A stretch of DNA of 32,000 nt, taken from Geotalea uraniireducens Rf4 (GTDB lineage Bacteria; Desulfobacterota; Desulfuromonadia; Geobacterales; Geobacteraceae). This document shows positions 1,700-28,487 of this stretch, in pieces. The stretch spans positions 930,001 through 962,000 of the forward strand of contig NC_009483.1 of NCBI RefSeq assembly GCF_000016745.1. The letters run 5' to 3'. A program made the position numbers and the translations under genes. Every line of letters starts with the position of its first letter. The first letter of the stretch is position 1. Under the pieces are notes generated by a model that was given only the letters and a program-made list of their open reading frames with translations, ran no database searches and was not told the origin of the DNA.

Positions 1700-1885
1700 G
1701 AATTGTTGAGTGCTAAGATCATGGCAGGTCTTCTGGCTCGCGATTCATCCTCCGGGCGCCTTCCCGGTCTTTCGACCAGTGACATAATGCCCTTCGTCCT
1801 CGCTTACAGCGGCGGGTCCGCGGGGGAATGGCTCGGTTTGAGCGGCACCCCTCTTCCCTATCAAGCCCTTGCGGGCACCGTGATC
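1700..1885 (-). promoter_or_regulatory. cobalamin (B12) riboswitch, distal copy
   Basis: The minus strand reads GGTGCCCGCAAGGGCTTGATAGGGAAGAGGGGTGCCGCTCAAACCGAGCCATTCCCCCGCGGACCCGCCGCTGTAAGCG ... ATGTCACTGGTCGAAAGACCGGGAAGGCGCC ... GAGCCAGAAGACCTGCCAT. The last segment is a canonical B12 box, the complement of 1721-1739. Confidence 0.7.
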
Positions 1886-2030
1886 CGATATTCAGTTTTT
1901 GTTGATATTTACTAAATATTGCATGATCTCTTTAGCACAACACTACATCATGTGTCAATCAGCTATTGTTTAAACAGATTAACAACAGTTGCGCGACCCG
2001 TTTCCGCTGTCAGCTCAGGATAAAAACAAC

Positions 2031-4554: not shown

Positions 4555-4807
4555 GGTCATATCCTCCTTTTTGTCGTAACACGGATTATATAAAAGTAGC
4601 ACGAAACGAATACAAAAATAATTTAAGTATGTCAATAAGTATTTGAGTATTTTTATGGGCGTCGGTTCGGAAGGGGCATTGTATTCACAGAGGGCGGCCG
4701 GCGTTGTAAACGAAAACCGGGGGAAAAGCGTTATTTAGTAGTTGACCATCAGCAGACGATTTGCAATAGTTACAAAAAATTCATCCGGCAGGGTGTGGAG
4801 GGTGGTA

Positions 4808-5989
4808 ATGAAACATTGCACTACGGTTATTCTCTTCGTCTCCATCTTGGTTGCATCGGTTATTTCCGGCAGGGCGGATTTCGATGCGGGCTTAAGGGCA
4901 TACAATGATGGCGACTACGCCACGGCCATGCGTGAATACAGGATAGACGGCAGCGCCAGGTCCCTTTTCAACCTCGGTCTCATGTATGCGGAAGGGAAGG
5001 GGGTCAATAAACGGAACAGCAGGGAGGCGATGAAATGGTATCGCAAGGCTGCTGAACAGGGTTTGGCGAAGGCTCAGTTTGCCCTTGGCCTCATGTACGC
5101 TCTCGGCGAGGATGTTGCCGCGGACAAGAAGGAGGCGGCCAGATGGTATCGTAAAGCCGCCGAACAAGGACATGCGGCCGCCCAGTACAATCTGGCGCAG
5201 ATGTATGCCAGGGGTGATGGCGTCAAGAAGGACGAAACGGAGGCCGATAAATGGTATCGCAAGGCTGCCGAGCAGGGGAATGCCGCAGCCCAGTTGAACC
5301 TGGCTCAGCTATACGAAAAAGGCGCAGGCGTTGTGCAGGATAAAAAAGAGGCGGCCCGCTGGTATCTCAAGGCCGCCGAACAGGGGAACGTGCGCGCCCA
5401 GTTCAGCATCGCCATGATGTACGACAAGGGGGACGGGGTCGAGCAAAACAAAAAGGAGGCTGCGCGATGGTTCCGCCGGGCCGCTGAGCAGAATCATGCC
5501 AAGGCCCAGTTCAAGATCGGCTTCCTGTACGATAAGGGTGATGGTGTCCTTCAGGACAAGAAAGAGGCGGTGAAATGGTATCGTAAGGCTGCCGAGCGGG
5601 GGGTGTCGGAAGCCCGGTTCAATCTCGGACTCATGTATTACGCCGGATCGGGTGTGCCGCAGGACAAGAAGGCGGCTGCACGGTGGTTCCGCAAGGCCGC
5701 CGACCAAGGGGATGTTGATGCCCAGTTCAACCTGGGGCACATGTACGACCAGGGGGACGGGATCAAGCAGGACAGGAAAGAGGCGGTGAAATGGTATCGC
5801 AAGGCCGCCGAACAGGGCTTCGATCAGGCCCAGTTCAATCTCGGTCTCATGTATTTCCATGGCTACGGCGTGAAACAGAACCGTAAGGAAGCCTTCAAAT
5901 GGTTTGTAAAAGCGGCTGAACAGGGCTCGGATGAAGCAGTGAAAACCTTGGAAGTCCTCGGCAGGGGGATGCCTCTGGCCCGGCCTTAA
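4808..5989 (+). CDS. secreted Sel1-like repeat (SLR/TPR-like) protein
   Basis: Start is the ATG at 4808 (MKHCTTVILFVSILVASVISG is a signal peptide), after GGAGGG. About nine consecutive 36-aa units of the form KEAxKWYRKAAEQGxxxAQFNLGxMYxxGxGVxQDKK appear as roughly 108-bp tandem DNA repeats. Confidence 0.9.
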   Translation: MKHCTTVILFVSILVASVISGRADFDAGLRAYNDGDYATAMREYRIDGSARSLFNLGLMYAEGKGVNKRNSREAMKWYRKAAEQGLAKAQFALGLMYALGEDVAADKKEAARWYRKAAEQGHAAAQYNLAQMYARGDGVKKDETEADKWYRKAAEQGNAAAQLNLAQLYEKGAGVVQDKKEAARWYLKAAEQGNVRAQFSIAMMYDKGDGVEQNKKEAARWFRRAAEQNHAKAQFKIGFLYDKGDGVLQDKKEAVKWYRKAAERGVSEARFNLGLMYYAGSGVPQDKKAAARWFRKAADQGDVDAQFNLGHMYDQGDGIKQDRKEAVKWYRKAAEQGFDQAQFNLGLMYFHGYGVKQNRKEAFKWFVKAAEQGSDEAVKTLEVLGRGMPLARP

Positions 5990-6064: not shown

Positions 6065-6490
6065 TCAAGGAGCAGGCGTCTCAGGTTTCGGGAACAGTCG
6101 TTTCCGCCCTTCATGGTCAACGGCCACGTACGTGTACGAGGCTTCCGTGACCATGGAAAATACATTTTCCTTATCTAGCTTTATTTCCAGGAAACCCGGC
6201 TTCACCCAGACCTCCAGCCTGATGGTGACGGATGTGTTCCCGATCCGCGTAACTTGACCGTAGCAGCAGACAACATCACCGACCCTTACCGGCTTGATGA
6301 ATTTCATGGCGTCCACCGCAATCGTAACTGCGCGGCCGCCGGTAATTTCTATTGCCATCATGCCGCCGGCGATGTCCATTTGCGACATGATCCATCCGCC
6401 GAAGATGTCGCCGTTCGCGTTTGTGTCACTCGGCATCGGGGAGGTACGGAGAAGCAATTCTCCCTCCGGATATGCACTGTGGTTGGTCAA
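6065..6490 (-). CDS. acyl-CoA thioesterase, hotdog fold (YciA-like)
   Basis: PSDTNANGDIFGGWIMSQMDIAGG ... AVDAMKFIKPVRVGDVV ... resembles the YciA/acyl-CoA thioester hydrolase family. TTG start at 6490, 5 nt after AAGGAGG. Confidence 0.8.
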   Translation of the reverse strand: MTNHSAYPEGELLLRTSPMPSDTNANGDIFGGWIMSQMDIAGGMMAIEITGGRAVTIAVDAMKFIKPVRVGDVVCCYGQVTRIGNTSVTIRLEVWVKPGFLEIKLDKENVFSMVTEASYTYVAVDHEGRKRLFPKPETPAP

Positions 6491-6620
6491 GGATGCCTCC
6501 TTATGCTGTTTTGAACGGTTAAGAGCATAGCGGCTTGCCCGCCCTTCTTATCTCTTGCATAGGCTCGACAGAGGCGGCAGCTAAAGCCGCAGGGCGCAAT
6601 CAGCGTCGAGTTTGTTGTTA

Positions 6621-7488: not shown

Positions 7489-8325
7489 TCAATTCGTTAT
7501 TGACCGGTTCACGCGCGCATAACGCCGCGGCGATACTCCCAGCTCCTTGCGGAACATCTCGATGAAGGCGCTCAGGCTCTGGTACCCCAGATCGAAGGCG
7601 ATGCCCGTCACCTGCTCCCCCCGGTCCAGCCGGTCCAGCGCTTTGTGCAGCAAGAGGCGCTTGCGCCACCCCCCAAAGGTCAGTCCGGTCTCGCTGACGA
7701 AGAGCCGTGCCAGGGTGCGGCTACTGGCCCCGGCAATCTTCCCCCAGGCATCGAGACCGCGATTGTCGCCGGGGCTCTTCAGCAGAGCGTCAATCACCCG
7801 CATCACCCTCTCGTCCCGCGCCATCGGCAGGCGCAGCGGCGTCGCTTCGGCAATGCGCAACTCATCCAGCAGCACCTGCATCACCCGCCACTCTGCCCCA
7901 TCCGGCGCGTAGCTATTGCCGATCTGCACCGCTCTCAAAATCAGTTCGCGCAGAAGCGGTGCAACCTTCAGCACTGTGCACTGCAGCGGCAGACCGGTTA
8001 CTGCCGAGGGATCGACAAACAGGCTGCGCAAGGCGGTATCGCCGGGGAAATAGACCTCGTGCTCCTGATTGGGCGGTACCCAGACCGCCTGAGAGGGGGG
8101 GACCACCCAGACGTCCCGGCTGCAGATAACCCGCATCATCCCGCTGCTGGCGTAGATCAGTTGCCCCCGCGGATGGACATGGACCGCCGCACTCCCGATC
8201 TCCCGCGCCTGCATCTTCAGGGGGCTCACCTCAATTGCCAGCGAGATGACCGGCAGCTTTGCATCCAGCAGAAAGCCCTGCTCCACCGGCGGCAATCTTG
8301 TCAGTTTTGCGATATTCATTGGCAT
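7489..8325 (-). CDS. AraC/XylS-family transcriptional regulator with an N-terminal cupin domain
   Basis: The C-terminal dual HTH (SSRTLARLFVSETGLTFGGWRKRLLL ... IAFDLGYQSLSAFIEMFRKELGVSPRRY) is AraC-type. The N-terminal region has a cupin-like HxH segment. The start is uncertain (8325 or 8319; track start 8355) and there is no clear RBS. The last 11 codons are homologous to the class-B element (see findings). Confidence 0.85.
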   Translation of the reverse strand: MPMNIAKLTRLPPVEQGFLLDAKLPVISLAIEVSPLKMQAREIGSAAVHVHPRGQLIYASSGMMRVICSRDVWVVPPSQAVWVPPNQEHEVYFPGDTALRSLFVDPSAVTGLPLQCTVLKVAPLLRELILRAVQIGNSYAPDGAEWRVMQVLLDELRIAEATPLRLPMARDERVMRVIDALLKSPGDNRGLDAWGKIAGASSRTLARLFVSETGLTFGGWRKRLLLHKALDRLDRGEQVTGIAFDLGYQSLSAFIEMFRKELGVSPRRYARVNRSITN

Positions 8326-8439
8326 ACTATAGTAAGACAGCCAGATGAAAGTCAACTATACTGTTCATATCCACACGAAAAGGAGCACGCATATGATCCG
8401 TACCCATAAACAAGAGATCGTTGACCAAGAGGCACAGCC

Positions 8440-10580: not shown

Positions 10581-10609
10581 ATTGTATGTATTTTATATGC
10601 ATATGTCAA
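10581..10609 (-). promoter_or_regulatory. sigma70-type promoter of brnTA with a palindromic candidate operator
   Basis: The minus strand has TTGACA (10609-10604), a 17-nt spacer containing the palindrome ATATGCATAT, then TACAAT (10586-10581). The -35 box overlaps the MFS stop codon. Confidence 0.55.
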
Positions 10610-11892
10610 GGGTTGCCCCCACTGCCTCTCTGCACTTCTGACGCCGTCGCGGGCGTCGCATGGTGCTCGCTGCGGAAATGAAAATACGCCAAGGCCAGCG
10701 ATGCGGCTTGAAGCAGGGCGCAAAAATAGAACGGCGCGCCGATGCGCCAATCGCCGCGCTGCAAATGGGAAACCGTCGCAAGCAGCGGCGTGCTGAACAA
10801 GGGGGCCACTACCGCCATCAGGCTGTTCAGGGAGTTGACCGCCCCCAACGCCTGCCCCTGGCTTTGGGAGTCGGCGGCGCTGGAAATTATGCTTTGCAGC
10901 GACGCAGTAACCGTATAGCTAAGCAGATTCAGGAAGATTACTGCGTACATCATCCAGCCCTGGTTGGCTATGCCCCACAATATGTAGGCGATCGACGACG
11001 ACGCCAGTCCGGCAACCACAAGGCGTCGCGGACTAAAGCGTTTCAGCAGCCGTCCGAGCAGAAAACCCTGCACGACCAACGACATGATGCCGACCGCTGC
11101 GAGCGACCAGCCGTTTTCACGCGGTCCCCAGCCGAACTTGAAGGTCGTGTACAACACCCAACTGGTGAACAGCACGAATTGGGCAAGTCCGCTCAACGCA
11201 ACCACGGCGACCAATCGGCCGACACCGCTCAGCCGGGTCAGCGCGCGTAGCGACACGAGCGGGTTTGCCATCCGCCAGTGGAATGGGCGCCGGCGCTCGG
11301 CAGGGAGCGACTCGGGTAACACAAAATAGCCGTAGAGCCAGTTAATCATTGCAAAGGCGCCGGCGACGAAAAACGGGAGCTGTATGGTGATTGCGCCCAG
11401 CAGCCCGCCCATCACCGGCCCGACGATGAAGCCAACGCCGAACATCGCGCCCAACATGCCGAAACGCCTGGCACGCTCTTCGGGAACGGTGATATCCGCC
11501 ACATACGCGTTAGCCACGGCCGCATTGGCCTGCATCGCACCGCCCACCAGCCGCACCGCAATCAGCATCCACAACGCCGTGGAGAGCCCTGTTGCGAAAA
11601 AATTGAGGCCGAGTCCGCAAAAACCGAGCAAGAGCAACGGGCGGCGACCGTAAGCGTCGGACAGCGCACCGAGGATCGGCGAAGCGAAAAAATTCGCGAT
11701 TCCGAACGCGAACACCACGACGCCATACCAGAACGCCTGATTTGCTTGTGAGTCGGTGAAACTTCCGACCAACGACGGCAACACGGGAATGATCAAACCG
11801 ATAGACACCATGTCGATCAGCACGGTCAACATGATGAAAGGCATGGCCGCTGTGCGGTCGCGACGGGGCGAAAATAATTTGAAATTAATCAC
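10606..11892 (-). CDS. MFS efflux transporter, TetA/TCR-like (12 TM)
   Basis: MLTVLIDMVSIGLIIPVLPSLV and GALSDAYGRRPLLLLG (MFS motif A-like) resemble the TetA class. The start is uncertain: GTG at 11892 or ATG at 11844. The first 35 codons or so lie inside the 116-bp duplication. Confidence 0.85.
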   Translation of the reverse strand: MINFKLFSPRRDRTAAMPFIMLTVLIDMVSIGLIIPVLPSLVGSFTDSQANQAFWYGVVVFAFGIANFFASPILGALSDAYGRRPLLLLGFCGLGLNFFATGLSTALWMLIAVRLVGGAMQANAAVANAYVADITVPEERARRFGMLGAMFGVGFIVGPVMGGLLGAITIQLPFFVAGAFAMINWLYGYFVLPESLPAERRRPFHWRMANPLVSLRALTRLSGVGRLVAVVALSGLAQFVLFTSWVLYTTFKFGWGPRENGWSLAAVGIMSLVVQGFLLGRLLKRFSPRRLVVAGLASSSIAYILWGIANQGWMMYAVIFLNLLSYTVTASLQSIISSAADSQSQGQALGAVNSLNSLMAVVAPLFSTPLLATVSHLQRGDWRIGAPFYFCALLQAASLALAYFHFRSEHHATPATASEVQRGSGGNP

Positions 11893-11904
11893 GCTTAAAT
11901 ACTC
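11789..11904. repeat. 116-bp perfect direct repeat, left copy (part of the intact MFS gene)
   Basis: Checked base by base: identical to 16769-16884 at an offset of exactly 4980 bp. The flanking bases differ on both sides (11788 a vs 16768 c; 11905 g vs 16885 t). Confidence 0.95.
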
Positions 11905-12133: not shown

Positions 12134-13216
12134 TTATTTACGTGTGATTCCCAGATCTTTCTTGGCAGACTTGATGTAGCGACCAAATGCCTTATCCTTT
12201 TTTCGCTTTTCAAGATACGACAGATCATGAAACTCTGATTCACTCCTGAGTTTGATAAAGTTCTGATAGTGTGCCCGATGGAGACTTCCTTCCTCAATTG
12301 CACTCAAAACAGCACAACCTGGTTCGTTAGAGTGAGAGCAATCACTATATTTGCATTTCGATGCTAACGCATAGATATCAGCAAAGCTGTCGCCCATTCC
12401 TTCCTCAGCTCCTAAAATGCCAAATTCACGCATTCCTGGGTTATCTATCAACATTGCACCATTATCCAATATTATGAGTTCGCGACGCACCGTCGTATGT
12501 CGTCCCTCGCCTGTACCACTTACCACCTTGGTTTCAAGTATATGACGGCCAATCAACTGGTTGATCAATGTACTCTTGCCAACCCCTGATGAACCTAAAA
12601 GACAGTAGGTTTTTCCGGGCTGTAGAATTTCACGTACATTATTAACACCTTCGCCGGTGACGTTACTAAGCGCGATTACCTCCGTATTTATTCCAGCACT
12701 TCTAATTTTTTCTATTAGTTGTTGGAGAGTTTCAGGACTGACCAGGTCAGTTTTTGTAAGTAAAACGACAGGATGTACATGCCCATTTCTAACCATTACC
12801 AAGTAACGCTCAAGCCTGTTAACATTGAAGTCGAAATGACAGGCCTGGACTATTAAGGCTACGTCAATATTCGAGGCAATCATCTGGTATTCAATGATAT
12901 CTCCTGCAGCCTTACGACGAAGAACCGACTTTCTAGGAATGACGTCATGAATTATTCCATACATGTCAGAGGTGCTGTATTGAATGCATACCCAGTCTCC
13001 AACACATGGAAGATCAATTGATTGCTCGGTCATATATAGAAAACGGCCGGCAAGCTTTGCGCGAAATTCACCAGACTCATCTATTACAAGAAGTTGATCA
13101 CGATCCACAGCAACAACACGTGCAAGACGGTGTTCTGCCGAGCCCTTTTCATGTGCCTTTGCATCAAACCATTCATCCCATCCAAATTGATTTAGTTGTT
13201 CAGAAGCAGAGCTCAT
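12134..13216 (-). CDS. rsgA: RsgA/YjeQ-family circularly permuted GTPase (cassette-borne paralogue)
   Basis: The motif order G4 LLTKTDL, G1 GSSGVGKSTLIN, G3 DNPGMREF is the RsgA circular permutation. The C-terminal zinc knuckle is CKYSDCSHSNEPGCAV. The preferred start is the ATG at 13216, 7 nt after GAGGT; the track start (GTG at 13261) lies inside the attC R' box. The gene is AT-rich. Confidence 0.8.
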   Translation of the reverse strand: MSSASEQLNQFGWDEWFDAKAHEKGSAEHRLARVVAVDRDQLLVIDESGEFRAKLAGRFLYMTEQSIDLPCVGDWVCIQYSTSDMYGIIHDVIPRKSVLRRKAAGDIIEYQMIASNIDVALIVQACHFDFNVNRLERYLVMVRNGHVHPVVLLTKTDLVSPETLQQLIEKIRSAGINTEVIALSNVTGEGVNNVREILQPGKTYCLLGSSGVGKSTLINQLIGRHILETKVVSGTGEGRHTTVRRELIILDNGAMLIDNPGMREFGILGAEEGMGDSFADIYALASKCKYSDCSHSNEPGCAVLSAIEEGSLHRAHYQNFIKLRSESEFHDLSYLEKRKKDKAFGRYIKSAKKDLGITRK

Positions 13217-13260
13217 TTGACATACCTCAAAATGTACAGATTTTTTTCTCATTACTTTCA

Positions 13261-13329
13261 CGCCAACGGCTCACGGCGTGACCTGCGCGGCGCTGTTTGC
13301 CGCGTCAGAGTCTACGCCGCGGGTTATGC
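13261..13329 (-). other. attC-like recombination site
   Basis: Minus-strand reading: GCATAAC ccgc GGCGTAGAC tctgac GCGGC aaacagc GCCGC gcag GTCACGCC gtgagcc GTTGGCG. The stop codon TAA of the upstream ORF lies inside the R'' box. The 46-nt core differs at 2 positions from the site at 13951-14018. Confidence 0.7.
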
Positions 13330-13935
13330 AATTTTATAAATTATAGGGATAGCTATACCGTAAGCAACTGTAAGTACCCCAAGCGCTTCGGCTTTAACTC
13401 CACCAACAATTGCCGCTTTTAAATTAGTGTTAATTTCATTTATATCAGTTTTGATTGTGTTTATCTTTATACTTATTCTATCTTCAGAAGTCCTAATATC
13501 CCTTTTAAGTTCGTCTCTTGTTTTGTCGATTTTGTCATGAATTCTATTTACTTCTTGCAAGAGAAATTCAACTTTTTCTTCAGTATTTTTATGGCCAGGA
13601 ATCAGTCTTGCGTCGTATATCCCGCTGGCACTGAGAAGGGAATCAACTTGGAGGTTCACAGATTTTTGCTTGGCAATTAGGGGAAACCTCTTCAACCAAT
13701 CAAATATTGAATTTTTGATACTAGTTTTGGATACAATTCCAAGGTTACTATTGATCACCCAAATAATAATTAGGCCACCAATAATTTGAAATGCTGCACT
13801 AAAATTTGAATTTATTATCTGATTGTGAGATTGAAATATTCGTAGTGAGAAGAGGTGCACTGATACAAAAACTGGGAAGAGATGAAGAGGCCATGGTTCA
13901 ATTGACCATTTATATAATCTTTTAATTACCTTCAT
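13324..13935 (-). CDS. hypothetical membrane protein with a coiled-coil middle region (cassette ORF)
   Basis: 203 aa with RBS AGAGGGGAGAA. It has N-terminal TM helices, a charged coiled-coil segment (EEKVEFLLQEVNRIHDKIDKTRDELKRDIRTSEDRISIKINTIKTDINEINTNLK) and a C-terminal TM helix. It is very AT-rich, and I recognise no family. Confidence 0.7.
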   Translation of the reverse strand: MKVIKRLYKWSIEPWPLHLFPVFVSVHLFSLRIFQSHNQIINSNFSAAFQIIGGLIIIWVINSNLGIVSKTSIKNSIFDWLKRFPLIAKQKSVNLQVDSLLSASGIYDARLIPGHKNTEEKVEFLLQEVNRIHDKIDKTRDELKRDIRTSEDRISIKINTIKTDINEINTNLKAAIVGGVKAEALGVLTVAYGIAIPIIYKIA

Positions 13936-13950: not shown

Positions 13951-14018
13951 CGATAACGTGTCGTGGCGTGACCTGCGCGGCGGTGTTTGCCGCGTCAGTG
14001 TCTACGCCGGTGTTGGCA
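13951..14018 (-). other. attC-like recombination site
   Basis: Minus-strand reading: TGCCAAC accg GCGTAGAC actgac GCGGC aaacacc GCCGC gcag GTCACGCC acgacac GTTATCG. It begins 6 nt after the stop of the 477-aa ORF and ends 15 nt before the start of the next ORF. Confidence 0.7.
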
Positions 14019-14023
14019 GCAGT

Positions 14024-15457
14024 CTATTTCCCGGATTTCGCTGTTGCCAAGACACCTACCAAAGATTTTGTCAGAGTCCGTTTTTCGGCACATTCGGATA
14101 TTTTGTCGTATCCATATTTGGTCATCAGGGCGAAAGGAGCGGCGGTTGCAAGAAATGGTGCAAGGGCTGGAAATAAACCAACTCCTGTAGCTGCGATTGC
14201 CATCACAGCAGTTTGGCCGTGAATTCGTCTATATTTTTCCTTTATGTCTCTTTGCTGCTTCTCATGCTCTGCAATTGCAATGGTAATCTCATGGCAGACC
14301 TCTGCTGCAACCTTATCTATATCTGTAAGAACCGATTCATGTAATCTGCCAACGGCATCTTGTAGCCGTTTTCGAAAGCCGACGTTCTCGTTGTCTTCTC
14401 TCAGTCGTATTAATGTATCAATTGATATATCGCCCAGCCAATCAAGTCTCTGAGAGGCGAGAGCTTCAATCAAGGCATTGGTTCTGGGGTTTATTAGACC
14501 AGTCTTTTCGAGTCGGGCATTGTTGGCGGTAGCAACTATCTTGTAATAGTGTGCGTGTTGATCGAGGCACATAAGCGGATGACAACCAAGTTCTTCCGCG
14601 TTTTCTAACAGATGATATTGTGGGGTAAGGCGTTCACAGATCCCGTTAAAGACACGTTGATGCTCCGGGATTCGTGCAAATATATCCAGCCACTCTTTTG
14701 ATCGCCACGTCTCCATCTCCACTTGGTATCGCTGCAATGCATCCACAAGAGGCTCATCAACAGGCCCTCCTGGCGCGACAAAAAGATGATTTCTGTCTAC
14801 GGTTGATAGAAATTTCTCGGGGTTTCGGTTTGCATAATCGAGAACCTCTTCAAGAGTTTCAAGTTTCTCATCAAGGGAGGCAGAGAACACACAACCAATA
14901 AGATGTGAAATCCCATCCTTTGTGTACTCATCTTTATCCTCTAAGATCTTTTCCATGCTCGGGAAAACGAGGACGGCGGGGTTCTGGAAGTTAGCGTCTA
15001 TGAGTGGTTTTATATGCAGGAGAGCATGAACGTTCTGAATTAAAGAGACGTGACGGAATTTTTCTTCCGTTCTTTCACGCTCAAGCCAAGGCATTACGGG
15101 GTCAGGAACGAAAACCGTGTCGCTATACAGGATACTTGTCGAGACAGAGTTCAATTGGCTTCCGAGGAATCGGCTGCCACCACCAAGAACTAATTTCATA
15201 CCGCCAAGCTGCTTTGCTAGGCGGAATGCTTCACCAGCATTCTTTCCATACAGTTGACGGAGTTGCTCTTCTAACCAAACGAAAGCATCCCAACTCCTTG
15301 GCGCAATTTGCTGGGCACGGGAACGAATTGTATCGGCGAAGTTGTCAATAGTACTGAAAGCAGTTGCTGTACTGCCGGTAGCCCTGATAAAGAACTCGTC
15401 AAGGATGGAAAAGAACGTTCGCTCATATTCTGTGATTAGTTTTATTGGGTCTTGCAT
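14024..15457 (-). CDS. hypothetical 477-aa protein with a C-terminal hydrophobic/TM segment (cassette ORF)
   Basis: Long ORF with RBS GAGGAAGGA. The C-terminus TAVMAIAATGVGLFPALAPFLATAAPFALM looks membrane-inserting. I recognise no conserved catalytic motif. AT-rich. Confidence 0.75.
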   Translation of the reverse strand: MQDPIKLITEYERTFFSILDEFFIRATGSTATAFSTIDNFADTIRSRAQQIAPRSWDAFVWLEEQLRQLYGKNAGEAFRLAKQLGGMKLVLGGGSRFLGSQLNSVSTSILYSDTVFVPDPVMPWLERERTEEKFRHVSLIQNVHALLHIKPLIDANFQNPAVLVFPSMEKILEDKDEYTKDGISHLIGCVFSASLDEKLETLEEVLDYANRNPEKFLSTVDRNHLFVAPGGPVDEPLVDALQRYQVEMETWRSKEWLDIFARIPEHQRVFNGICERLTPQYHLLENAEELGCHPLMCLDQHAHYYKIVATANNARLEKTGLINPRTNALIEALASQRLDWLGDISIDTLIRLREDNENVGFRKRLQDAVGRLHESVLTDIDKVAAEVCHEITIAIAEHEKQQRDIKEKYRRIHGQTAVMAIAATGVGLFPALAPFLATAAPFALMTKYGYDKISECAEKRTLTKSLVGVLATAKSGK

Positions 15458-15473: not shown

Positions 15474-15566
15474 TGACAACTCCCTTATTCACCGGTTCAA
15501 CACGCGCGCATGAACCGGTGATCTACCCAAACGGAACATTTAATCTGTGAACATGAACAAAATAGA
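15474..15566 (-). other. class-B boundary element, copy 1 (palindrome-bearing, ends in GTTGTCA at the cassette start)
   Basis: Perfect 9-bp hairpin ACCGGTTCA acacgcgcgca TGAACCGGT. The 46-nt core at 15509-15554 is identical, apart from one position, to 24971-25016. The minus-strand 3' end GTTGTCA is a 6-of-7 complement of the R'' box TGCCAAC of the next attC-like site. Confidence 0.6.
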
Positions 15567-15567
15567 C

Positions 15568-16620
15568 TAAGGGTCAGGTCTACATTCTACACTTTTCAAA
15601 CTTTCCCTTTATCTTCTCGACCTTTCTTCCCAGCACCTCATCCGTCTCCATTTTCCTGACAAGCCTTCTGCTCGCTTCACTTATCGCCGTATCTCGTACG
15701 TTGAAGCGATCTCCTATTTCCTGAAGTCTCATTCCGCTGTATTTATGGCAAAGATAGATGCACACCTGCCTCGCTAGCTTTTCGTTGCCATGCAATGCCG
15801 CTATTGCTTCCTTCATGATTTCTTCCGGCGATGGCCTGTTGGCAAAATGCTTCAGCGCCGGAATATTCGCGTCTTCCTTTTCCCGGATATGCGCCGTTGA
15901 TATTTCATCTATAAAGTCGGCGCTCCCCAATATCGATCCACCGAAGATTTTGCTCAAAGGGCTTTCGTATTCTTTGCCGATCATATTTTCAACAAAGGTC
16001 CTGTACTTTTTCCGAGCGTCCGCTTCTTTCTTTGCAAAGCATCCTAGGATAAAACCGGTTCTCAGCCATGCTGGCGGTTTGCTTTGCCCAATGAAGCTTT
16101 GGTAGCTGGACCATTGGTAGTGCTCTGGCCTTTCGACGATTCCGGCTTTGACCGGGTTCAGGTGTATGTAGCGGGAAAGCTCCGCCAGGTATTCATCGGC
16201 CTCGACAAGGATCGCCTTGTATCTACCCTGGAACAGATGACCCGACCTCTTTCTTTTGACGTTGAAGTAGGTCGTGTATGCCCCGTTTATGTGTCGCATT
16301 ATCTGCGATAGGTTACCGGATGGTGTTTCCAGCAACAGATGGTAATGGTTGCTCATCAAACAATAGGCGTGAACTACCGCCCCGTACCGCTCCGTTGCCG
16401 ATGCAAGATATTCAAGAAACTTCTCCCGATCCCTCCGGCTTTTGAATATGTCCTTCTTTTCATTCCCACGCGACGTGACATGATAAAACGCTCCCGGATA
16501 CTCGATGCGTAAAGGTCGTGCCATTGCTCTCTCCTTTGAGCGATTGAGTGTAACGTATGGAGTTGCCCTCTATCATATCAAAGAATTCTGGTTTTGTGTA
16601 GAATGTAGACTTGACCCTTA
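15568..16620 (-). mobile_element. compact Y1-transposase element bounded by 25-bp inverted repeats
   Basis: IR-L at 15568-15592 is TAAGGGTCAGGTCTACATTCTACAC. The reverse complement of IR-R at 16596-16620 is TAAGGGTCAAGTCTACATTCTACAC, 24 of 25 identical. A single ORF lies inside, and its last codons are within IR-L. Confidence 0.7.
15580..16524 (-). CDS. IS200/REP-associated (RAYT-like) Y1 HUH transposase fused to a DnaA-domain-IV-like HTH
   Basis: YHVTSRGN, the HUH motif SNHYHLLLE, and the catalytic-Tyr region LSRYIHLNPVKAG. The C-terminal ARQVCIYLCHKYSGMRLQEIGDRFNVRDTAISEASRRL resembles the DnaA C-terminal DNA-binding domain. Confidence 0.85.
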   Translation of the reverse strand: MARPLRIEYPGAFYHVTSRGNEKKDIFKSRRDREKFLEYLASATERYGAVVHAYCLMSNHYHLLLETPSGNLSQIMRHINGAYTTYFNVKRKRSGHLFQGRYKAILVEADEYLAELSRYIHLNPVKAGIVERPEHYQWSSYQSFIGQSKPPAWLRTGFILGCFAKKEADARKKYRTFVENMIGKEYESPLSKIFGGSILGSADFIDEISTAHIREKEDANIPALKHFANRPSPEEIMKEAIAALHGNEKLARQVCIYLCHKYSGMRLQEIGDRFNVRDTAISEASRRLVRKMETDEVLGRKVEKIKGKFEKCRM

Positions 16621-16649
16621 TTGCCCTGTGTGACCCTTATTGCCCTGTG
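16612..16649 (+). repeat. tandem REP-like 19-mers, TGACCCTTATTGCCCTGTG x2
   Basis: Two perfect adjacent copies at 16612-16630 and 16631-16649. The first overlaps the outer end of IR-R. Confidence 0.85.
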
Positions 16650-16768
16650 TTCTTAAAAGCTCCTTTTTACCAGAAAAAACGTGGCTCTAAGGCCATAATC
16701 AGGGCCTATGTTGGCCAATAGATGCTATATTTCAGTTGGTTAACTTGGTCCGACCCCATGGAGACCCC

Positions 16769-16872
16769 ATGATCAAACCGATAGACACCATGTCGATCAG
16801 CACGGTCAACATGATGAAAGGCATGGCCGCTGTGCGGTCGCGACGGGGCGAAAATAATTTGAAATTAATCAC
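16769..16872 (-). pseudogene. orphan 5' fragment (about 35 codons) of the MFS transporter gene
   Basis: It encodes (V/M)INFKLFSPRRDRTAAMPFIMLTVLIDMVSIGLII, identical to the start of 10606-11892. Homology then stops abruptly at 16768. Confidence 0.85.
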
Positions 16873-16884
16873 GCTTAAATACTC
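16769..16884. repeat. 116-bp perfect direct repeat, right copy
   Basis: Identical to 11789-11904. It starts 10 bp after the stop of the radical SAM gene. Confidence 0.95.
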
Positions 16885-19647: not shown

Positions 19648-22600
19648 CTAGAAATTCCCTAGAATGGTACCTGACTCTCCTACGACTACAAAATGGCCAC
19701 TCCCATCATATGAGACCCCGTTCAAGTTGTTCGTGGTATAGGAGGCTCTCTTCGTCCAAGTGACACCATCGGGCGAAGTCAAAAGGTATCCTGAATCCCC
19801 AACCACAACGAACTGGCCACCTCCATAGGATACGCCGGACAGTTTGCTGGTAGTCCCGGATGTGCGGCTTGTCCAGAGAATGCCATCATTCGAGGTCAGC
19901 ACGGTGCCAGCTTCGCCGACGGCGACATACTGGCCACCACCATAGGTTGCCCCATACAGTGAGTAGATAGTACCGGAAGCCCTGTTGGTCCAGGCCACGC
20001 CATCTGGTGATGTCAAAATGGAACCGCTTGCACCCACCGCAACAAACTGACCGCCACCATAGGTGACACGAACCAGGTTCTGTGTCGTCCCCGAAGCGCT
20101 GAGCGTCCAGGAAACGCCGTCGGGGGAGGTGAGGATCGCTCCTGCTGCACCGACCAAAACAAACTGGCCGCCTCCATAGGCGACGCCACTAGAGGAAGTC
20201 GCAGTAGTATGACCCGTCCATGTTACGGAATCAGGCGAAGTCAAGATAGAAGCCCAGGTCACCCCGAGATATATTCCGTTTCCATAGGCGATGTCGGTCA
20301 CGGGACTGCCCGAACTGCTATTGCGATCTGTCCAGGTGACACCATCGGGCGAGGTCATTATGACACCCTTACCTCCAGACCACCCGACTGTCACGAATTC
20401 GCTGCCGGTGAACATCACGCCGGATAGCTTGTTTGTTGTGCCGGAGGTGGACGCCCAGGTAGTGCCATTGGAGGATATAAGGACCGTTCCAGCGTCGCCG
20501 GTCGCCACTGACTGGCCGTTCACATTGTTCACGCCATTCAGGTTTTTCTGCGTGCCGGAGAAGTAATTGGTCCAGGTGATACCGTCAGGAGAGGTCTGGA
20601 TCGCGCCGCTTAGACCCACGGCAATGAACTGGGCGCCATCGTAGGTCACTGCGATGAAGCTCGGCTTGAAAGACATGCCTACCGAAGGCACCCAGGCCGC
20701 CGACTGTGTTGCCCAGTCGACGCCATTCAGGGAAGTCAGCACCGTCCCTGCATTTCCTACCGCGACAAATCGCCCACCTCCGTAGGTTACGCCGTTCAGG
20801 TTGATGGTCGTTCCCGAGGACCGGCTCGTCCACGTGACACTGTCGGCAGAAGTCAGGATGAGGCCGGAATTCCCGGAGACAACATACTGGTTACTGCCGT
20901 AGGTGATGTCGCGCAAATGCGTGGCTGTGCCGGAGGAACGGCCGGTCCAGACGATACCGTCGGCGGACGTCAGGATCGTGCCGGAGTTACCGACCACTAC
21001 AAACTGACCGCCGGTATAGATCGTTCCCGTCAAGTTGGCCGTGGTTCCAGAGGCTCTAATCTGCCAGGTTGCACCGTCACTGGAGGTCAGAATGACGCCC
21101 GAATCGCCGACTGCGACAAACTGGCCACCGCCATAAACCACACGAGTCAAATTGGCTGAAGTCCCGGAGTTTTGAATGCTCCAGTTGCTGCCGCTATCTG
21201 AAGTGGCGATAACTCCCGCAGTACCTACCGCAACAAATTTGCCCGCGCCGTAGGCGACGTTGTCCAGGTTGTTACCGCCGGTCCTTGGGCTGAGCCAGTA
21301 CCAGTTACTGACATTTATCGCCGATCCTCCAGTTGTGCCACCAGTGCCGCCGGTGTAGCCTCCGGAGTAACCGCTGCTACCGCCAGTACCGCCAGTACCG
21401 CCAGTACCGCCAGTGCCGCCGGAATTGCTGGAACCGCCACTGCCGGAAAAGACGGTTTCATCACTATGGTAGAAGCTACGGTAGAGTTGCCAGCTGGCAC
21501 CATCCGACTGGCTCCAGGCTATGGCTGTATCCCCGGTTCCATCCATGGCTACGTCGTAATTGACATAGTTCAGCTGGTCATTACTCACTGCCAGGAGGTT
21601 TTTATCGGTCCAGGAGCCGTTAAGGTACTGCATTGTATATACCTGCCAGTCTGCACCATTGGCCTGGTTCCAAAGGAGAATCCCATTGCCGCTGTGATCC
21701 ATTTTTATCAGGGGGCGGTTGGCCGAGGTCGCAGCAGAGCTGACTTGTCTGGGTGAATTCCATGTGCCTGCTCGCGATTCGACAATGACTATCTGCCACA
21801 GGTTATTAACCTTCTGTTGCCACGCTACGACGGCATTGCCGCGACTATCCATGGCAACACGGGGATAATCAGTTTCCGCACCGCCGGAATCGAGCAGAGC
21901 CGGACCGGTCCACGCACCATTGCGGTATTCGTTTCTGTAGGCGTGACGCTGGATGCCATCCTGCTGCCCCCACACGATGATAGCCTCGTTATTGCTGTCA
22001 AACGATAGCTGGAAATACGAATCCGGGTCCTGGCCTGCTATACTGACTATTTGCGGAGTACTCCAAAGTCCGTTTAAGCGTTGCCTGCTGAACAACTTGA
22101 CGTGAGTATAATAATGATCATTGTACTGCCAGGCTATTACCTGGTTCCCTTTTGAGTTCAGCGCCACCTTAGGGGAATTACAGCTACCCCCAGCTGAGAC
22201 CGCCACCGGATTGCTCCATGCACCGTCAGCATACTCCTTTGCGTAGATATTATCCTGTGACCATACTATAACGGCCCTGCCTTCGTCATTCATCGCGATT
22301 GACGGCGATAGGGATCCCGGAGAAAAGGACACGCCGGAAGCTGTAATCACTTGGGGCTGGCTCCAGAGCCCGTTCCGGTACTCCATCATTACTACTCCAG
22401 TTCCCCAATCCTCCCAGACCAGAACTGCATTGCCGTTGTTATCCATGGCAACCTTAGGCGAATAAACGTTAGAAGCGTTCCCGCTGACGACCCTAGGCTC
22501 GGTCCAGGTTCCATCAGCCAGTTGACTCATGACAATTTCATAATGGCTATTGGTGCTGTTATATCTCCACCACGCGACGATGGCGTTGCCGTGCTTATCC

Positions 22601-23070
22601 ATGGCTGTCACGGCACTATTTGCCTTGCCGAAGTTTTCTGTACTGTCCCACTGACTGGTTTTAGTTGTAAAGCCAGTGGTGTATTCTCCGGGCAGTGTGC
22701 CGCCGTAAATGCTTTTTATGGTGGCGGCGACTTTAACCGTGTATCTTCTGCCGGCGGAAAGCTTATTTTTCAGCTTCAAGGTGGCAGTATTGCCGTTTAC
22801 TACAACCGTATCAGCTTCGACTGGGAAGCCTTGGTCATCCTTTACAGCAATTGCACCAGCAGTAACCGTATTAGCATCCAGGTTTGCGTCAAAGGAAACT
22901 GTTATGTCGCCGGTCCTGGTTACCTCAGTAGCTCCGTCTACTGGGGTGACACTTGCTACCTTCAGCTCGACAGGCACAGGCGTAGAGGCGGTTCCGCTGG
23001 AACCGCCGCCACAGCCAAATAAAGAAATCGCCAGAGATATCAGTAGTAAAAAATCCAGTCGTTTTTTCAT
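19648..23070 (-). CDS. 1140-aa surface lipoprotein: Ig-like (SbsA/Big-like) domain plus two different beta-propeller-type repeat arrays joined by a Gly/Thr/Ser linker
   Basis: Lipobox LISLAISLFGC. The N-terminal VASVTPVDGATEVTRTGDITVSFDANLD is Ig-like. Next come repeats of the D..GNA.(I/V)VW type, then the linker GSGGSSNSGGTGGTGGTGGTGGSSGYSGGYTGGTGG. About 18-20 units of W(T/S)..(S)SGT...L.GV.YGGGQFVAVG..G.ILTS.DG..W follow, resembling Ycf48/BNR-like propeller blades. Confidence 0.85.
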   Translation of the reverse strand: MKKRLDFLLLISLAISLFGCGGGSSGTASTPVPVELKVASVTPVDGATEVTRTGDITVSFDANLDANTVTAGAIAVKDDQGFPVEADTVVVNGNTATLKLKNKLSAGRRYTVKVAATIKSIYGGTLPGEYTTGFTTKTSQWDSTENFGKANSAVTAMDKHGNAIVAWWRYNSTNSHYEIVMSQLADGTWTEPRVVSGNASNVYSPKVAMDNNGNAVLVWEDWGTGVVMMEYRNGLWSQPQVITASGVSFSPGSLSPSIAMNDEGRAVIVWSQDNIYAKEYADGAWSNPVAVSAGGSCNSPKVALNSKGNQVIAWQYNDHYYTHVKLFSRQRLNGLWSTPQIVSIAGQDPDSYFQLSFDSNNEAIIVWGQQDGIQRHAYRNEYRNGAWTGPALLDSGGAETDYPRVAMDSRGNAVVAWQQKVNNLWQIVIVESRAGTWNSPRQVSSAATSANRPLIKMDHSGNGILLWNQANGADWQVYTMQYLNGSWTDKNLLAVSNDQLNYVNYDVAMDGTGDTAIAWSQSDGASWQLYRSFYHSDETVFSGSGGSSNSGGTGGTGGTGGTGGSSGYSGGYTGGTGGTTGGSAINVSNWYWLSPRTGGNNLDNVAYGAGKFVAVGTAGVIATSDSGSNWSIQNSGTSANLTRVVYGGGQFVAVGDSGVILTSSDGATWQIRASGTTANLTGTIYTGGQFVVVGNSGTILTSADGIVWTGRSSGTATHLRDITYGSNQYVVSGNSGLILTSADSVTWTSRSSGTTINLNGVTYGGGRFVAVGNAGTVLTSLNGVDWATQSAAWVPSVGMSFKPSFIAVTYDGAQFIAVGLSGAIQTSPDGITWTNYFSGTQKNLNGVNNVNGQSVATGDAGTVLISSNGTTWASTSGTTNKLSGVMFTGSEFVTVGWSGGKGVIMTSPDGVTWTDRNSSSGSPVTDIAYGNGIYLGVTWASILTSPDSVTWTGHTTATSSSGVAYGGGQFVLVGAAGAILTSPDGVSWTLSASGTTQNLVRVTYGGGQFVAVGASGSILTSPDGVAWTNRASGTIYSLYGATYGGGQYVAVGEAGTVLTSNDGILWTSRTSGTTSKLSGVSYGGGQFVVVGDSGYLLTSPDGVTWTKRASYTTNNLNGVSYDGSGHFVVVGESGTILGNF
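21379..21414. repeat. 9-bp microsatellite (ACCGCCAGT)x4 inside the lipoprotein linker
   Basis: Four perfect tandem copies on the plus strand encode the TGG repeats of the linker. Confidence 0.9.
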
Positions 23071-23346: not shown

Positions 23347-23418
23347 ATCCAACGGGTCGGCAGTTGACCCGCTTGCCCGGCCTTTTCGGGCGGGCGGTGT
23401 CCAACTGTCTTGTTGGCA
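23347..23418 (-). other. attC-like recombination site
   Basis: Minus-strand reading: TGCCAAC aaga CAGTTGGAC accgcccgcccg aaaagg ccgggcaagc GGGTCAACTG ccgaccc GTTGGAT. It has nested inverted repeats (CAGTTG/CAACTG and GCCCG/CGGGC). The R'' box TGCCAAC is a 6-of-7 complement of the R' box GTTGGCG of the preceding site. Confidence 0.65.
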
Positions 23419-24436: not shown

Positions 24437-24496
24437 CGCCAACGGTGCCGAGGCGCACCAGCGCGTCAGCGTCTGCGTGCCGCCGAGTGGTTGTGT
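24437..24496 (-). other. attC-like recombination site
   Basis: Minus-strand reading: ACACAAC cactc GGCGGCACGCAGAC gctgac GCGCTGGTGCGCC tcggcacc GTTGGCG. It begins 4 nt after the stop of the 137-aa ORF. The R'' box ACACAAC is the exact reverse complement of GTTGTGT at 24938-24944. Confidence 0.65.
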
Positions 24497-24499
24497 GTC

Positions 24500-24913
24500 T
24501 CACTTCCAACGATGACCACAACTTTTGCAACCATACCTCTTCCAAAACAGAAGCAGTGGCAGCGAAATGAGAAGGGTAAGCGCTGCAAATTTTCTCGTGT
24601 AATTCTTTGTTTCTATTTCTGTCGCACCACAGACCGGGCAGGCGGAGTCCTCAAGGTGTTCTTCTGATTCCTCTGATGCCTCTGATGCCATAGATTCTGT
24701 GGTTTCCTCAAGAATTGCCTTTGCTTCTTCTGCATTTTCTTCAGGTACATTTAGCTTCACTCCACCCAAGGCGTTCGAGTAAAGCCAGTTGGCGCCAATA
24801 GTGAACTCGTTGTCGAGGAAGCAAGTGATTCCTGCCGACTCAAGCCTCGATTTGGCAAGGCCCGCTTCCGGTAGATCCCTAAACTGAGCAATTGTTATAA
24901 GTCCGCCCGCCAT
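24500..24913 (-). CDS. DUF2007-like N-terminal domain protein with an acidic linker and a TM-split zinc ribbon (cassette ORF)
   Basis: RBS AGAGGAA. The N-terminus ITIAQFRDLPEAGLAKSRLESAGITCFLDNE is like the putative signal-transducing DUF2007 fold. CPVCG ... TM helix (FAALTLLISLPLLLFW) ... CKSCGHRW. Confidence 0.7.
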   Translation of the reverse strand: MAGGLITIAQFRDLPEAGLAKSRLESAGITCFLDNEFTIGANWLYSNALGGVKLNVPEENAEEAKAILEETTESMASEASEESEEHLEDSACPVCGATEIETKNYTRKFAALTLLISLPLLLFWKRYGCKSCGHRWK

Positions 24914-24937: not shown

Positions 24938-25030
24938 ACACAACTCGTTATTGACCAGTTCACGCGCGCGCATGAACCGGTGATCTACCCAAACGGAATA
25001 TTTAATCTGTGAACATTAAAACATATTAGC
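24938..25030 (-). other. class-B boundary element, copy 2 (ends in GTTGTGT at the cassette start)
   Basis: Hairpin ACCAGTTCA cgcgcgcgca TGAACCGGT. The core is shared with copy 1. The minus-strand 3' end reads CAATAAC ga GTTGTGT. Confidence 0.6.
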
Positions 25031-25096
25031 AAAGCAACTGACCAGAAAACGGCCATCTTCCAAATTGCTTCCAAAGGATGTTGACAGGAAAACCGC

Positions 25097-26020
25097 TCAG
25101 TACGCCACTTCCCATATTCCGGAAGGCGACCGCACCACAATGAGGCGGGGCGGAAAGGCCACGGAAATAGCCATTGCAGCGCACATCCGGGCTTCGTCGC
25201 CTTTGATGCGTGCGAATGAGCTCTCGTCAAACGGGTAGAGAGGAGCGCCATCTTTGCGGCTGACTACAACTTCCGGATTCCCGGTCATGGCGAAATCGAG
25301 TTGATTCCGGGTCGGGGCCGCGACCCGTATGCCTGCCGCATACGCCTGATCGAGGCATCTTGATTTTTTTACCTCAACCGGGTTCATATTCGGATTTTTC
25401 CCCAGCAATTCGTAAATGTAAGCGAAATCCGGTTTGAATGCCTCCGCCCGTTTCTTCACAATAAGGGCCAGGCTTTTCTTGTCTTCATCGCTAAGCGAGG
25501 CCATTGGCGGATAATGGTGCCATGGAAGGTCGGCCGCGAAGTCCGCGACAAATTCGCGTTGTAACACAACCTTGCCCATCGTCTTTTTGTCCTCCTTGCC
25601 CGCGTCGCTCTGGTTGGTGGCTTGATAGCGTCCTCCCTCGCTTTTCTCGGTGGACTGGTCCATCACTGACACCCAGCTAATCTGCGCATTGTAAGGCTTT
25701 TTGGCATCGGCCGGCACGAACTCGATGCGGATCGAATTCTTGCCCTTGCGCAGCGCCGCCCCCAGCGAACTCGCAGGCACCCATATCGACGGCGAGATAT
25801 CGCGTTCCTCAAACAGGACCTGGACGTTATCTTTTCGCACCTCCTGCTCGGCGAACAAGACATTGTTGATAAAAACCCTGGCATTGCCCGGTACGGTTTC
25901 GACCTGATCGGACTTTAACGGATCGCCGACATAGGGCGTGAATTTGAACTCCACATTGATTACCCCGGCCGTAGCCACCGACGTCCAGAACAGGATTAGA
26001 AACAATGGTATTTTGTACAT
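25097..26020 (-). CDS. hypothetical exported protein (307 aa)
   Basis: Signal peptide MYKIPLFLILFWTSVATAG. No motif recognised. GC content is host-like. Confidence 0.7.
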   Translation of the reverse strand: MYKIPLFLILFWTSVATAGVINVEFKFTPYVGDPLKSDQVETVPGNARVFINNVLFAEQEVRKDNVQVLFEERDISPSIWVPASSLGAALRKGKNSIRIEFVPADAKKPYNAQISWVSVMDQSTEKSEGGRYQATNQSDAGKEDKKTMGKVVLQREFVADFAADLPWHHYPPMASLSDEDKKSLALIVKKRAEAFKPDFAYIYELLGKNPNMNPVEVKKSRCLDQAYAAGIRVAAPTRNQLDFAMTGNPEVVVSRKDGAPLYPFDESSFARIKGDEARMCAAMAISVAFPPRLIVVRSPSGIWEVAY

Positions 26021-28457: not shown

Positions 28458-28487
28458 AAAGGATGTTGAGAGGAAAACCGCTCAACA
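28458..28487. repeat. perfect 10-bp-stem hairpin shared with 25073-25100
   Basis: GGATGTTGAG aggaaaaccg CTCAACATCC. Positions 25073-25100 read aaaGGATGTTGACaggaaaaccgCTCAG, the same 5' arm and loop with a decayed 3' arm. Confidence 0.6.

Follow-up and report, generated by a model that had tools for sequence, protein, structure and literature searches.

Two short arrays of integron cassettes on the minus strand of a 32,000-nt stretch of the Geotalea uraniireducens Rf4 genome, referred to below as the window, are each headed by a copy of a conserved element that we call Class-B. We consider it likely that Class-B derives from the attI site of a Geobacteraceae-specific ("delta-type") chromosomal integron and now exists as a dispersed, orphan element, and that the cassettes behind it were inserted by an integron integrase, IntI, acting in trans. 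Class-B represents a single conserved family of about 95 nt with one to three copies per genome. In the window, it is found in the following setting, where a vertical bar marks the crossover point.

15480-15577, minus strand: Class-B copy 1 (B1), ending in GGGAG|TT with the crossover at 15480/15479; on its left, the copy is truncated by or directly adjoins the inverted repeat of a REP-associated tyrosine transposase (RAYT) element
15491-15519, no strand assigned: palindrome of B1, ACCGGTTCA-N11-TGAACCGGT, one match against none expected, predicted to fold into a hairpin
14024-15457, minus strand: first cassette ORF of array 1, 477 aa, no family
13951-14018, minus strand: attC of cassette 1 of array 1, R'' TGCCAAC, 55.4 bits with covariance model R1
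13324-13935 and 12134-13261 (RsgA-like GTPase), minus strand: later cassette ORFs of array 1, located 3' of the first
13261-13329, minus strand: attC of cassette 2 of array 1, 53.3 bits with R1
24944-25040, minus strand: Class-B copy 2 (B2), ending in AACGAG|TT with the crossover at 24944/24943
24954-24981, no strand assigned: palindrome of B2, ACCGGTTCA / TGAACTGGT, predicted to fold into a hairpin
24500-24913, minus strand: first cassette ORF of array 2, DUF2007
24437-24496, minus strand: attC of cassette 1 of array 2, R'' ACACAAC and R' GTTGGCG, 45.7 bits with R1 and supported by its fold
23347-23418, minus strand: attC of cassette 2 of array 2, the last site there, 50.7 bits with R1

The two copies are located 16 nt (B1) and 24 nt (B2) upstream of the first cassette ORF of their array, and were matched by a Class-B profile in nhmmer searches at 15482-15577 (E = 2.4e-25) and 24941-25040 (E = 8.5e-31). 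Together they form a repeat family (D11) of 58 nt at 95% identity, and a 28-mer taken from the core occurs twice as an exact match in the window, with none expected from 100 shuffles. The cassette stretches have a GC content of 40-47%, compared with 52-60% elsewhere in the window. An earlier note, made from the sequence of this DNA, had described a conserved repeat just upstream of the first cassette ORFs, with copies at 15474-15566 and 24938-25030. Both copies and their position were confirmed, but the extents take in six nucleotides of the cassette, as follows from the crossovers listed above and from that at 7493/7492 in a third, truncated copy (B3), which had been missed. The hairpin arms had been described correctly, with the single G-T pair of copy 2 forming on the cassette-sense strand and corresponding to an A-C mismatch on the opposite strand.

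Further members of the family were collected with an exact 22-mer from the Class-B core, which yielded 11 loci in MAGs of Geobacter, Geobacteraceae and Desulfuromonadaceae, and with an exact 21-mer, which yielded 18 loci in metagenomes. These search patterns of 21-22 nt are located inside the left hairpin arm, so that diverged copies were missed and covariation in the hairpin cannot be judged, the left arm having been fixed by the search. In total, we obtained about 29 distinct copies from Geobacteraceae/Desulfuromonadales MAGs and metagenomes, spread over about 20 unrelated contexts. Read on the cassette-sense strand, their consensus is (TTGCwTnGCTAATATTTTTTC)ATGTTCACAGaCTAAATGTTCCGTTTGGGTAGATCACCGGTTCATGCGCGCGCGTGAACCGGTsAATAACGAG|TT. 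From left to right, it consists of a left part, ATGTTCACAGaCTAAATGTTCCGTTTGG, which is kept among Class-B copies only; a GTAGATC box, single in most copies and present as two inverted boxes in six; a palindrome of 28-32 nt, ACCGGTTCA-TGCGCGCGCG-TGAACCGGT; and a tail, sAATAACGAG, followed by the crossover |TT.

About 90 nt of the element are conserved at about 90% identity across many species, with unrelated sequences on both flanks. The genes located 5' of the copies are mostly core genes, among them ordinary chromosomal genes such as those for TauE, DUF362, a PNPOx-like protein and topA, or else toxin-antitoxin pairs. The upstream flanks of about 20 copies were found to be unrelated to each other, and none of them contains an intI gene. 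The core hairpin of the consensus is more stable than shuffled sequences (z = -4.3), and more so in its long variant (z = -8.5), with no clear gain over shuffles for the fold of the 120-nt element as a whole (z of -0.3 to -1.8). The most common change in the hairpin is a C to T substitution in the right arm, observed in nine copies, which retains a G-T pair on the sense strand only.

The right end of the element is where the similarity among the copies breaks down. An automated scan placed this point at G|TT in 25 of the 29 copies, with GAG|TT in 22 of 29; beyond the junction, about 23 different GTTRRRY-type heptamers were observed. An integron cassette begins with the TTRRRY that completes its own attC site, and the heptamer at the junction must therefore be complementary to the R'' box of the next attC. 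Among about 20 evaluable copies, 15 had a heptamer that pairs in this way with the R'' box of the nearest canonical attC on the downstream side, eight of them exactly and seven with one mismatch. Counted by locus, an exact complement was present downstream at 9 of 20 evaluable loci, compared with 11% in mismatched pairs of heptamer and locus, one of the nine, that of B1, being a chance match inside an ORF. Exact complements open the attC after the first ORF at L001, L004, L005, L006, L008, L021, L023 and L026; B2 of the window is counted within the nine, and the attC has the canonical form at all exact loci except L005. Complements with one mismatch at the start of the attC were found for B1 in the window and for L010, L011, L015, L019 and L024, again canonical with one exception (L010).

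For the window, the earlier note had read the terminal sequences as CAATAAC-GA-GTTGTGT in copy 2 and GAATAAG-GGA-GTTGTCA in copy 1 and had suggested a crossover at the GTT. These readings stand: the heptamer GTTGTGT of B2 matches R'' ACACAAC at 7 of 7 positions, and GTTGTCA of B1 matches R'' TGCCAAC at 6 of 7. Since the complementarity is reproduced at other copies, neither of the outcomes that the earlier note had named as evidence against its reading, scattered copies and a heptamer match that is not repeated, was encountered. Judged from these alignments, the right end of Class-B is a true cassette junction.

The position of Class-B relative to the attC sites was examined with a covariance model, R1, built from 16 attC sites located next to Class-B loci and searched against the window and these loci; it replaced a thermodynamic attC finder that was either no better than on shuffled sequence or too insensitive. 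All 30 matches to R1, 14 of which were not in the seed, are located downstream of Class-B on its own strand, and none of the 30 is located 5' of it, although equal lengths of upstream and downstream sequence were searched. The arrays behind Class-B are short, with one to four attC sites by this model, and the element is located at their head. No conserved right end, as expected of a transposon-like unit, was found, and nothing is shared after the last attC site of different arrays, which indicates that Class-B and its array do not form a unit with a common far end.

Could the element nevertheless be an atypical, long attC site, either that of the upstream gene or that of a small cassette without an ORF, with G|TT junctions on both sides and recombined as a folded single strand? 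We consider this quite improbable, although it is one of the options that the earlier note had raised. A strong hairpin next to the crossover would fit this idea, as would the degenerate Class-B tails that precede several copies (L005, L011 and L027, and L008 with its ParE module). The motif TAACGRR|TT, which in 178 kb is found only on the strand of Class-B, at the element or 5' of it, and the C to T change in the right arm that keeps a G-T pair on the sense strand point in the same direction. However, the attC sites of class A fold with an R box, a spacer that is asymmetric and unpaired, and single extrahelical bases in the L stem, and Class-B has none of the corresponding features. No R'' (RYYYAAC) box pairs with its junction heptamer, as the earlier note had observed for the 5' end, and the folds yield a central stem only. 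This stem is perfect or contains one G-T pair, with no unpaired central spacer, bulges or extrahelical bases. The crossover falls outside the stem by 10-12 nt, canonical attC sites are absent 5' of the element, the upstream genes are mostly core genes, R1 gives no match on Class-B itself, and the tail is homologous to attI rather than to attC. Class-B thus differs from attC in every criterion tested, including the R''/R' pair, the spacer with extrahelical bases and the position after a cassette ORF; the missing R''/R' pairing and extrahelical bases lead us to conclude that it is not an attC site, and the suggestion of a long attC class is contradicted. It does share with the attC families of sedentary integrons, such as the VCR type, a conserved hairpin repeat next to G|TT at cassette boundaries, but unlike these it is never internal to an array.

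We now return to the interpretation of Class-B as a derivative of attI. Consistent with the earlier note, which had seen no intI adjacent to the arrays, Pfam scans identified no intI among the ORFs of the window. Likewise, tblastn searches with IntI1, GmeIntIA, the delta-type IntI, its N-terminal ORF and the 119-aa accessory ORF retrieved nothing in the window or at the approximately 29 Class-B loci. With no integrase or companion ORF near any of the copies, the linkage to intI by which an attI site is defined is absent.

Two kinds of intI genes have been described in Geobacter (Cambray et al., 2011; PMC3108266, supplementary file 5). One is similar to those in beta-proteobacteria and corresponds to GmeIntIA, which is listed as "functional," while the other belongs to a delta-proteobacterial clade that was flagged as "inactivated" (P to D and H to W changes), with members in G. 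metallireducens, G. lovleyi, FRC-32 and Rf4 (CP000698); the Rf4 gene was marked "predicted non-functional" (P247D, H284W; Cambray et al., 2011). These substitutions recur across the whole delta intI clade, and a well-formed array is located next to such a gene in L037. We also considered integrons of the GmeIntIA type (L033-L036) as the cognate system, but their attI is unrelated to Class-B and their attC sites are not recognized by R1. The match of the tail described below is therefore specific to one integron lineage.

Two bona fide attI junctions of the delta type, in L037 and L041, were compared with Class-B. The integrase in L037, a G. daltonii-like contig, scores 355.8 bits against the TIGR02249 "integron integrase" model, for which the cut-off is 265. 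It is preceded by a separate N-terminal ORF, and a conserved 119-aa ORF with no family is located between intI and the array. The attC sites of this array are matched by R1, belong to the attC class found behind Class-B and follow the R'/R'' chain rule exactly (TGATAAC, GCATAAC, GTATAAC). The attI of L037 ends in ...AACTGCTCATTAACGAG|TTATCA and is identical to the Class-B tail at 16 of 20 positions. In the second platform, L041, attI ends in ...TTAGATGCCGGACCTGACCGGTCAATAACGAG|TTGAGCG, and its last 19 nt, ACCGGTCAATAACGAG|TT, are identical to the Class-B tail (19/19; nhmmer E = 0.0024), in register with the junction. Both attI sites contain repeats of a GTAGAT-type palindrome and a small, weak hairpin (z of -1.4 and -2.0), the foot of which is located 8-9 nt before the crossover, compared with 10 nt in Class-B. 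The homology is limited to the last 20-35 nt, and the left half of Class-B, with its direct GTTC repeats, has no counterpart in the attI of L037 and L041.

The delta-type platforms (L037 3894-5708; L039-L042) have an unusual organization. A conserved ORF of 117-121 aa with no family separates intI from attI, intI is preceded by an additional N-terminal ORF or extension, and there are attI regions that are full of palindromes of the GTAGAT type.

Like integron attI sites, including attI1 of class 1 integrons and those of L037 and L041, Class-B heads its array and is the point at which cassettes primarily enter. Its crossover is located at the G|TT of a GTTRRRY box, with an inverted ...AAC box 2-4 nt before it and direct repeats upstream. 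Furthermore, an R''/R' hairpin is missing, and homology to the attI of L041 and L037 is seen over the last 19-20 nt. Class-B differs from attI in that it is not located beside intI and in that there are several sites per genome, in about 20 contexts. Unlike the attI of L037 and L041, it contains a perfect palindrome of 28-32 nt and the left part, and it has neither the arrays of GTAGAT-type palindromes nor the 119-aa ORF. Of the hallmarks of attI, Class-B thus displays the G|TT cassette crossover, the position at the array head and the homology to the cognate attI, and it lacks the linkage to intI. The earlier note's description of the element as an array head of attI type rather than attC type is therefore supported, and of the three options it named, that of a duplicated attI-like site that travels with array fragments is the one supported.

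The expanded palindrome and the left part are common to all Class-B copies and missing in the two real attI sites. This pattern suggests that one founder element spread to numerous loci, and speaks against repeated, independent losses of intI. First cassettes vary widely among the copies and each fits its own junction, which argues for repeated insertion at Class-B by an integrase in trans. According to this model, an integron integrase encoded elsewhere in the genome would bind the tail and crossover region of Class-B in double-stranded form. This region would recombine with the folded bottom strand of the attC site of a circular cassette, as in the integration of attC into attI. Strand exchange between G and TT would then place the new cassette directly 3' of Class-B, and because all cassettes would enter at this point, the element would stay at the head of a short array without an integrase. 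We infer that the enzyme would be the delta-type IntI and that the site would still be active. The palindrome could serve as a positioning element or as an element for an accessory protein.

A less dynamic explanation is that Class-B is a passive relic, that is, the leftover end of an attI site that was copied together with blocks of cassettes by illegitimate recombination, transposon rearrangement or long duplications, and into which nothing is inserted at present. Several observations are in line with this: there is no integrase nearby, the arrays contain only one to four attC sites, both arrays in the window adjoin long direct duplications (D6, D19) and ends of mobile elements, B3 is clearly a decayed fragment, and the intI homolog of Rf4 has been called non-functional (Cambray et al., 2011). 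Yet a relic would have had to retain about 90 nt at about 90% identity across many species, despite unrelated flanks. Nearly every copy is followed by a different first cassette with its own R'' matching the junction, a pattern that the movement of fixed blocks would not yield, and there is no common block end, with nothing shared after the last attC. We therefore regard the relic explanation as unlikely and favor the hypothesis of an attI-derived site that is used in trans.

The truncated third copy is located at a different place in the window.

7489-7520, minus strand: truncated Class-B copy (B3), consisting of the right hairpin arm and tail, GCGCGCGTGAACCGGTCAATAACGAA|TTG, with the crossover at 7493/7492

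This copy was matched by nhmmer at profile positions 77-110 (E = 2.2e-6), belongs to repeat family D16, and makes up the last seven codons and the stop codon of a gene for an AraC-family protein (7489-8355) that shows 100% identity to an Rf4 protein. Homologs of this protein at 91-94% identity end in ...YARQR*, followed by different genes downstream, and the tail derived from Class-B, YARVNRSITN/S*, is present only in Rf4 and in a relative at 96% identity (L032). In L032, the junction after the AraC-fused tail reads GAG|TTGAAAAG, still GAG|TT. B3 is a Class-B copy that was truncated and fused to the AraC gene at a short ATGCGCG overlap. We also examined whether Class-B could be a relic of the 3' end of the AraC gene, but the protein-level match (MFR..LG.SP..AR) and the MAFFT alignment on which this idea was based failed testing: the native 3' ends of the AraC genes in L012 and L013 compared with Class-B gave p of about 0.05-0.1 against shuffles and rank 177 among 1596 windows, with no nhmmer match. 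The right half of Class-B alone is found at these AraC genes, and in Rf4 and L032 only, so that the AraC tail represents a truncated Class-B copy rather than the ancestor of the family.

The gene next to B1 (ORF 15580-16524) codes for a RAYT protein (NF047646) with a DnaA-C-like HTH domain. The element to which it belongs (15568-16650) is flanked by 25-bp inverted repeats, one of which (15568-15592) is located beside B1, as the earlier note had pointed out, and by TAAGGGTCA repeats. A copy of the RAYT element at 74% identity is located right after the first attC of the Class-B-headed array in L023 (L023 1492-2603), and a RAYT-related end is located 5' of Class-B in L005. RAYT elements may have a liking for hairpin-rich arrays.

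According to another explanation, Class-B has no relation to attI and is a conserved element of a different kind, for instance an operator, RNA hairpin or REP/HUH site, that happens to be a favored target of the attG type or that is processed by an enzyme acting on single-stranded DNA hairpins, such as the adjacent Y1 transposase. The perfect palindrome is of the type bound by dimeric regulators or Y1 enzymes, RAYT abuts B1, with related ends or copies near Class-B in L005 and L023, and insertion at attG sites requires little sequence, GWT (bioRxiv 10.1101/2022.09.11.507474). However, the TAAGGGTCA repeats of RAYT are unlike Class-B and the RAYT gene is missing at most other Class-B loci, so that the different hairpin enzyme contemplated in the earlier note finds no support; nothing connects the RAYT gene with the function of Class-B. 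A substrate of REP/Y1 (HUH) enzymes would be a short palindrome in many copies, tied to a RAYT or IS200/IS605 gene and cleaved at a fixed distance from the hairpin, unlike Class-B with its one to three copies per genome. Scans of Class-B for sigma-70 promoter and terminator patterns, as well as for matches to Rfam, were negative, which disfavors a promoter, a terminator or a known RNA as its identity. Finally, identity over 19 nt with a bona fide attI is not expected of a random attG target. An unrelated element of this kind is, in our view, highly improbable, and the attI-derived origin of Class-B remains the preferred explanation.

Two additional candidates were discarded. A tRNA origin of Class-B, for which a loose resemblance of the stem to an acceptor/T minihelix would speak, was rejected because ARAGORN finds nothing and the acceptor halves do not pair. 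In L018 (approximately 3720-3790), a tRNA-like 5' half, GCCCTTAGCTCAGCTGGATAGAGTACTTGACT, runs into Class-B at ACTAAAT, with no tRNA called by ARAGORN. The LexA box has the form GGTTN2CN4GN3ACC, and by eye neither the spacing nor the bases of the Class-B palindrome fit this pattern.

The surroundings of the arrays in the window include several other repeats. A perfect direct repeat of 116 nt (11789-11904 and 16769-16884) corresponds to the 5' end of the gene for an MFS transporter (10606-11892), and the repeat pair encloses a 4.9-kb insert in which B1, its array and the RAYT gene are found. The copy on the upstream side duplicates the start of the transporter gene in truncated form, which suggests a recent duplicative insertion. 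The motif GTTAACTTGGTCCGACCCC has three occurrences (16739-16768 in the window, L005 at approximately 1091 and L009 at approximately 340), each within or beside a Class-B-headed array; the copy in the window abuts the 116-nt repeat, and the motif is possibly the end of a mobile element. A repeat of 27 nt (25073-25099 and 28458-28484) flanks an operon for flavocytochrome and cytochrome c and corresponds to half or all of a hairpin, GGATGTTGAG-N10-CTCAACATCC. An identical hairpin followed by GGAAGATGGCCGGTTTTCTGGTCA is located directly 5' of the Class-B copy in L027, and the left context is thus common to B2 and L027.

Elsewhere in the window, two tandem aptamers of cobalamin riboswitches (1437-1611 and 1706-1897, minus strand; 68.5 and 109.9 bits) are located 5' of minus-strand genes. 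Coding repeats were observed in two genes, with seven repeats of 108 nt in ORF 4742-5989 (window 5024-5925) and about ten repeats of 117 nt in the gene for a 1140-aa Big_5 protein at 19648-23070 (window 19751-21270). Compared with L032, Rf4 has an extra insert of about 590 nt (window 6065-6620 versus L032 2325-2350) that contains a 141-aa ORF (6065-6490) and is located between a gene for a GyrI-like protein and a convergently oriented repeat-protein gene.

The sequences at the left edge of Class-B are also worth considering. A degenerate Class-B tail is located just before this edge in L005 and L011 (TAACGAA|TTGC) and in L027 (AATAACGG|TTGC), and also in L003 and L020/L030. In L008 and L028, a degenerate tail is likewise found 5' of the element, and in L008 a ParE toxin-antitoxin module is located between this tail and a short Class-B copy. 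The motif TAACGRR|TT occurs 12 times in 178 kb, in all cases on the strand of Class-B and as part of a Class-B tail, of the AraC-fused B3 or of the sequence upstream of Class-B. This pattern hints that Class-B itself may have moved like a cassette, with a variable left boundary. We tentatively suggest, as a possibility to which we give less weight than to the attI-derived origin as such, that Class-B might be a portable attI, a landing pad of about 110 nt that acts as a cassette without an ORF and that, in several copies, is bounded on the left by TT(G/A) after a degenerate tail.

Clusters of attC sites that lack an integron integrase are known as CALINs (Cury et al., 2016; PMC4889954), and the arrays behind Class-B, with two to four attC sites and no intI gene or pseudogene within reach, are CALINs in this sense. 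Complete integrons and CALINs are of roughly equal frequency. Of the CALINs, 95% have no intI pseudogene nearby, and their definition makes no reference to a head site, attI being unknown for most integrons (Cury et al., 2016). The Class-B-headed arrays differ from CALINs as so defined in that each of them begins with a conserved head related to attI. Random insertion at attG sites has been proposed as the origin of CALINs (Loot et al.). Class-B and attG sites (bioRxiv 10.1101/2022.09.11.507474) have in common that cassettes are found outside a complete integron, inserted, as we propose for Class-B, by an integrase in trans at G|TT. The attG sites, however, are minimal (GWT with weak flanks), countless and mutually unrelated, a description that does not apply to Class-B, which is one attI-related family of about 95 nt. 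We found no description in the literature of the Class-B sequence or of orphan attI-like sites at the head of CALINs.

Our findings draw attention to an uncharacterized integron platform with an IntI of the delta clade that has been scored as inactive, a conserved 119-aa ORF and arrays of palindromes in attI. Class-B may serve as a head-site signature for integron-finding software in the Geobacteraceae, and it makes the action of an integrase in trans on dispersed attI-like sites testable with two or three cloned components. For the origin of CALINs, Class-B would provide a third and concrete answer in one lineage, namely array heads derived from attI that are not linked to intI. If Class-B were indeed a portable attI, a single integrase would serve a distributed integron, with small arrays at many sites, including the 3' ends of genes such as that for AraC, and at least one class of CALINs would arise by a programmed process rather than by decay.
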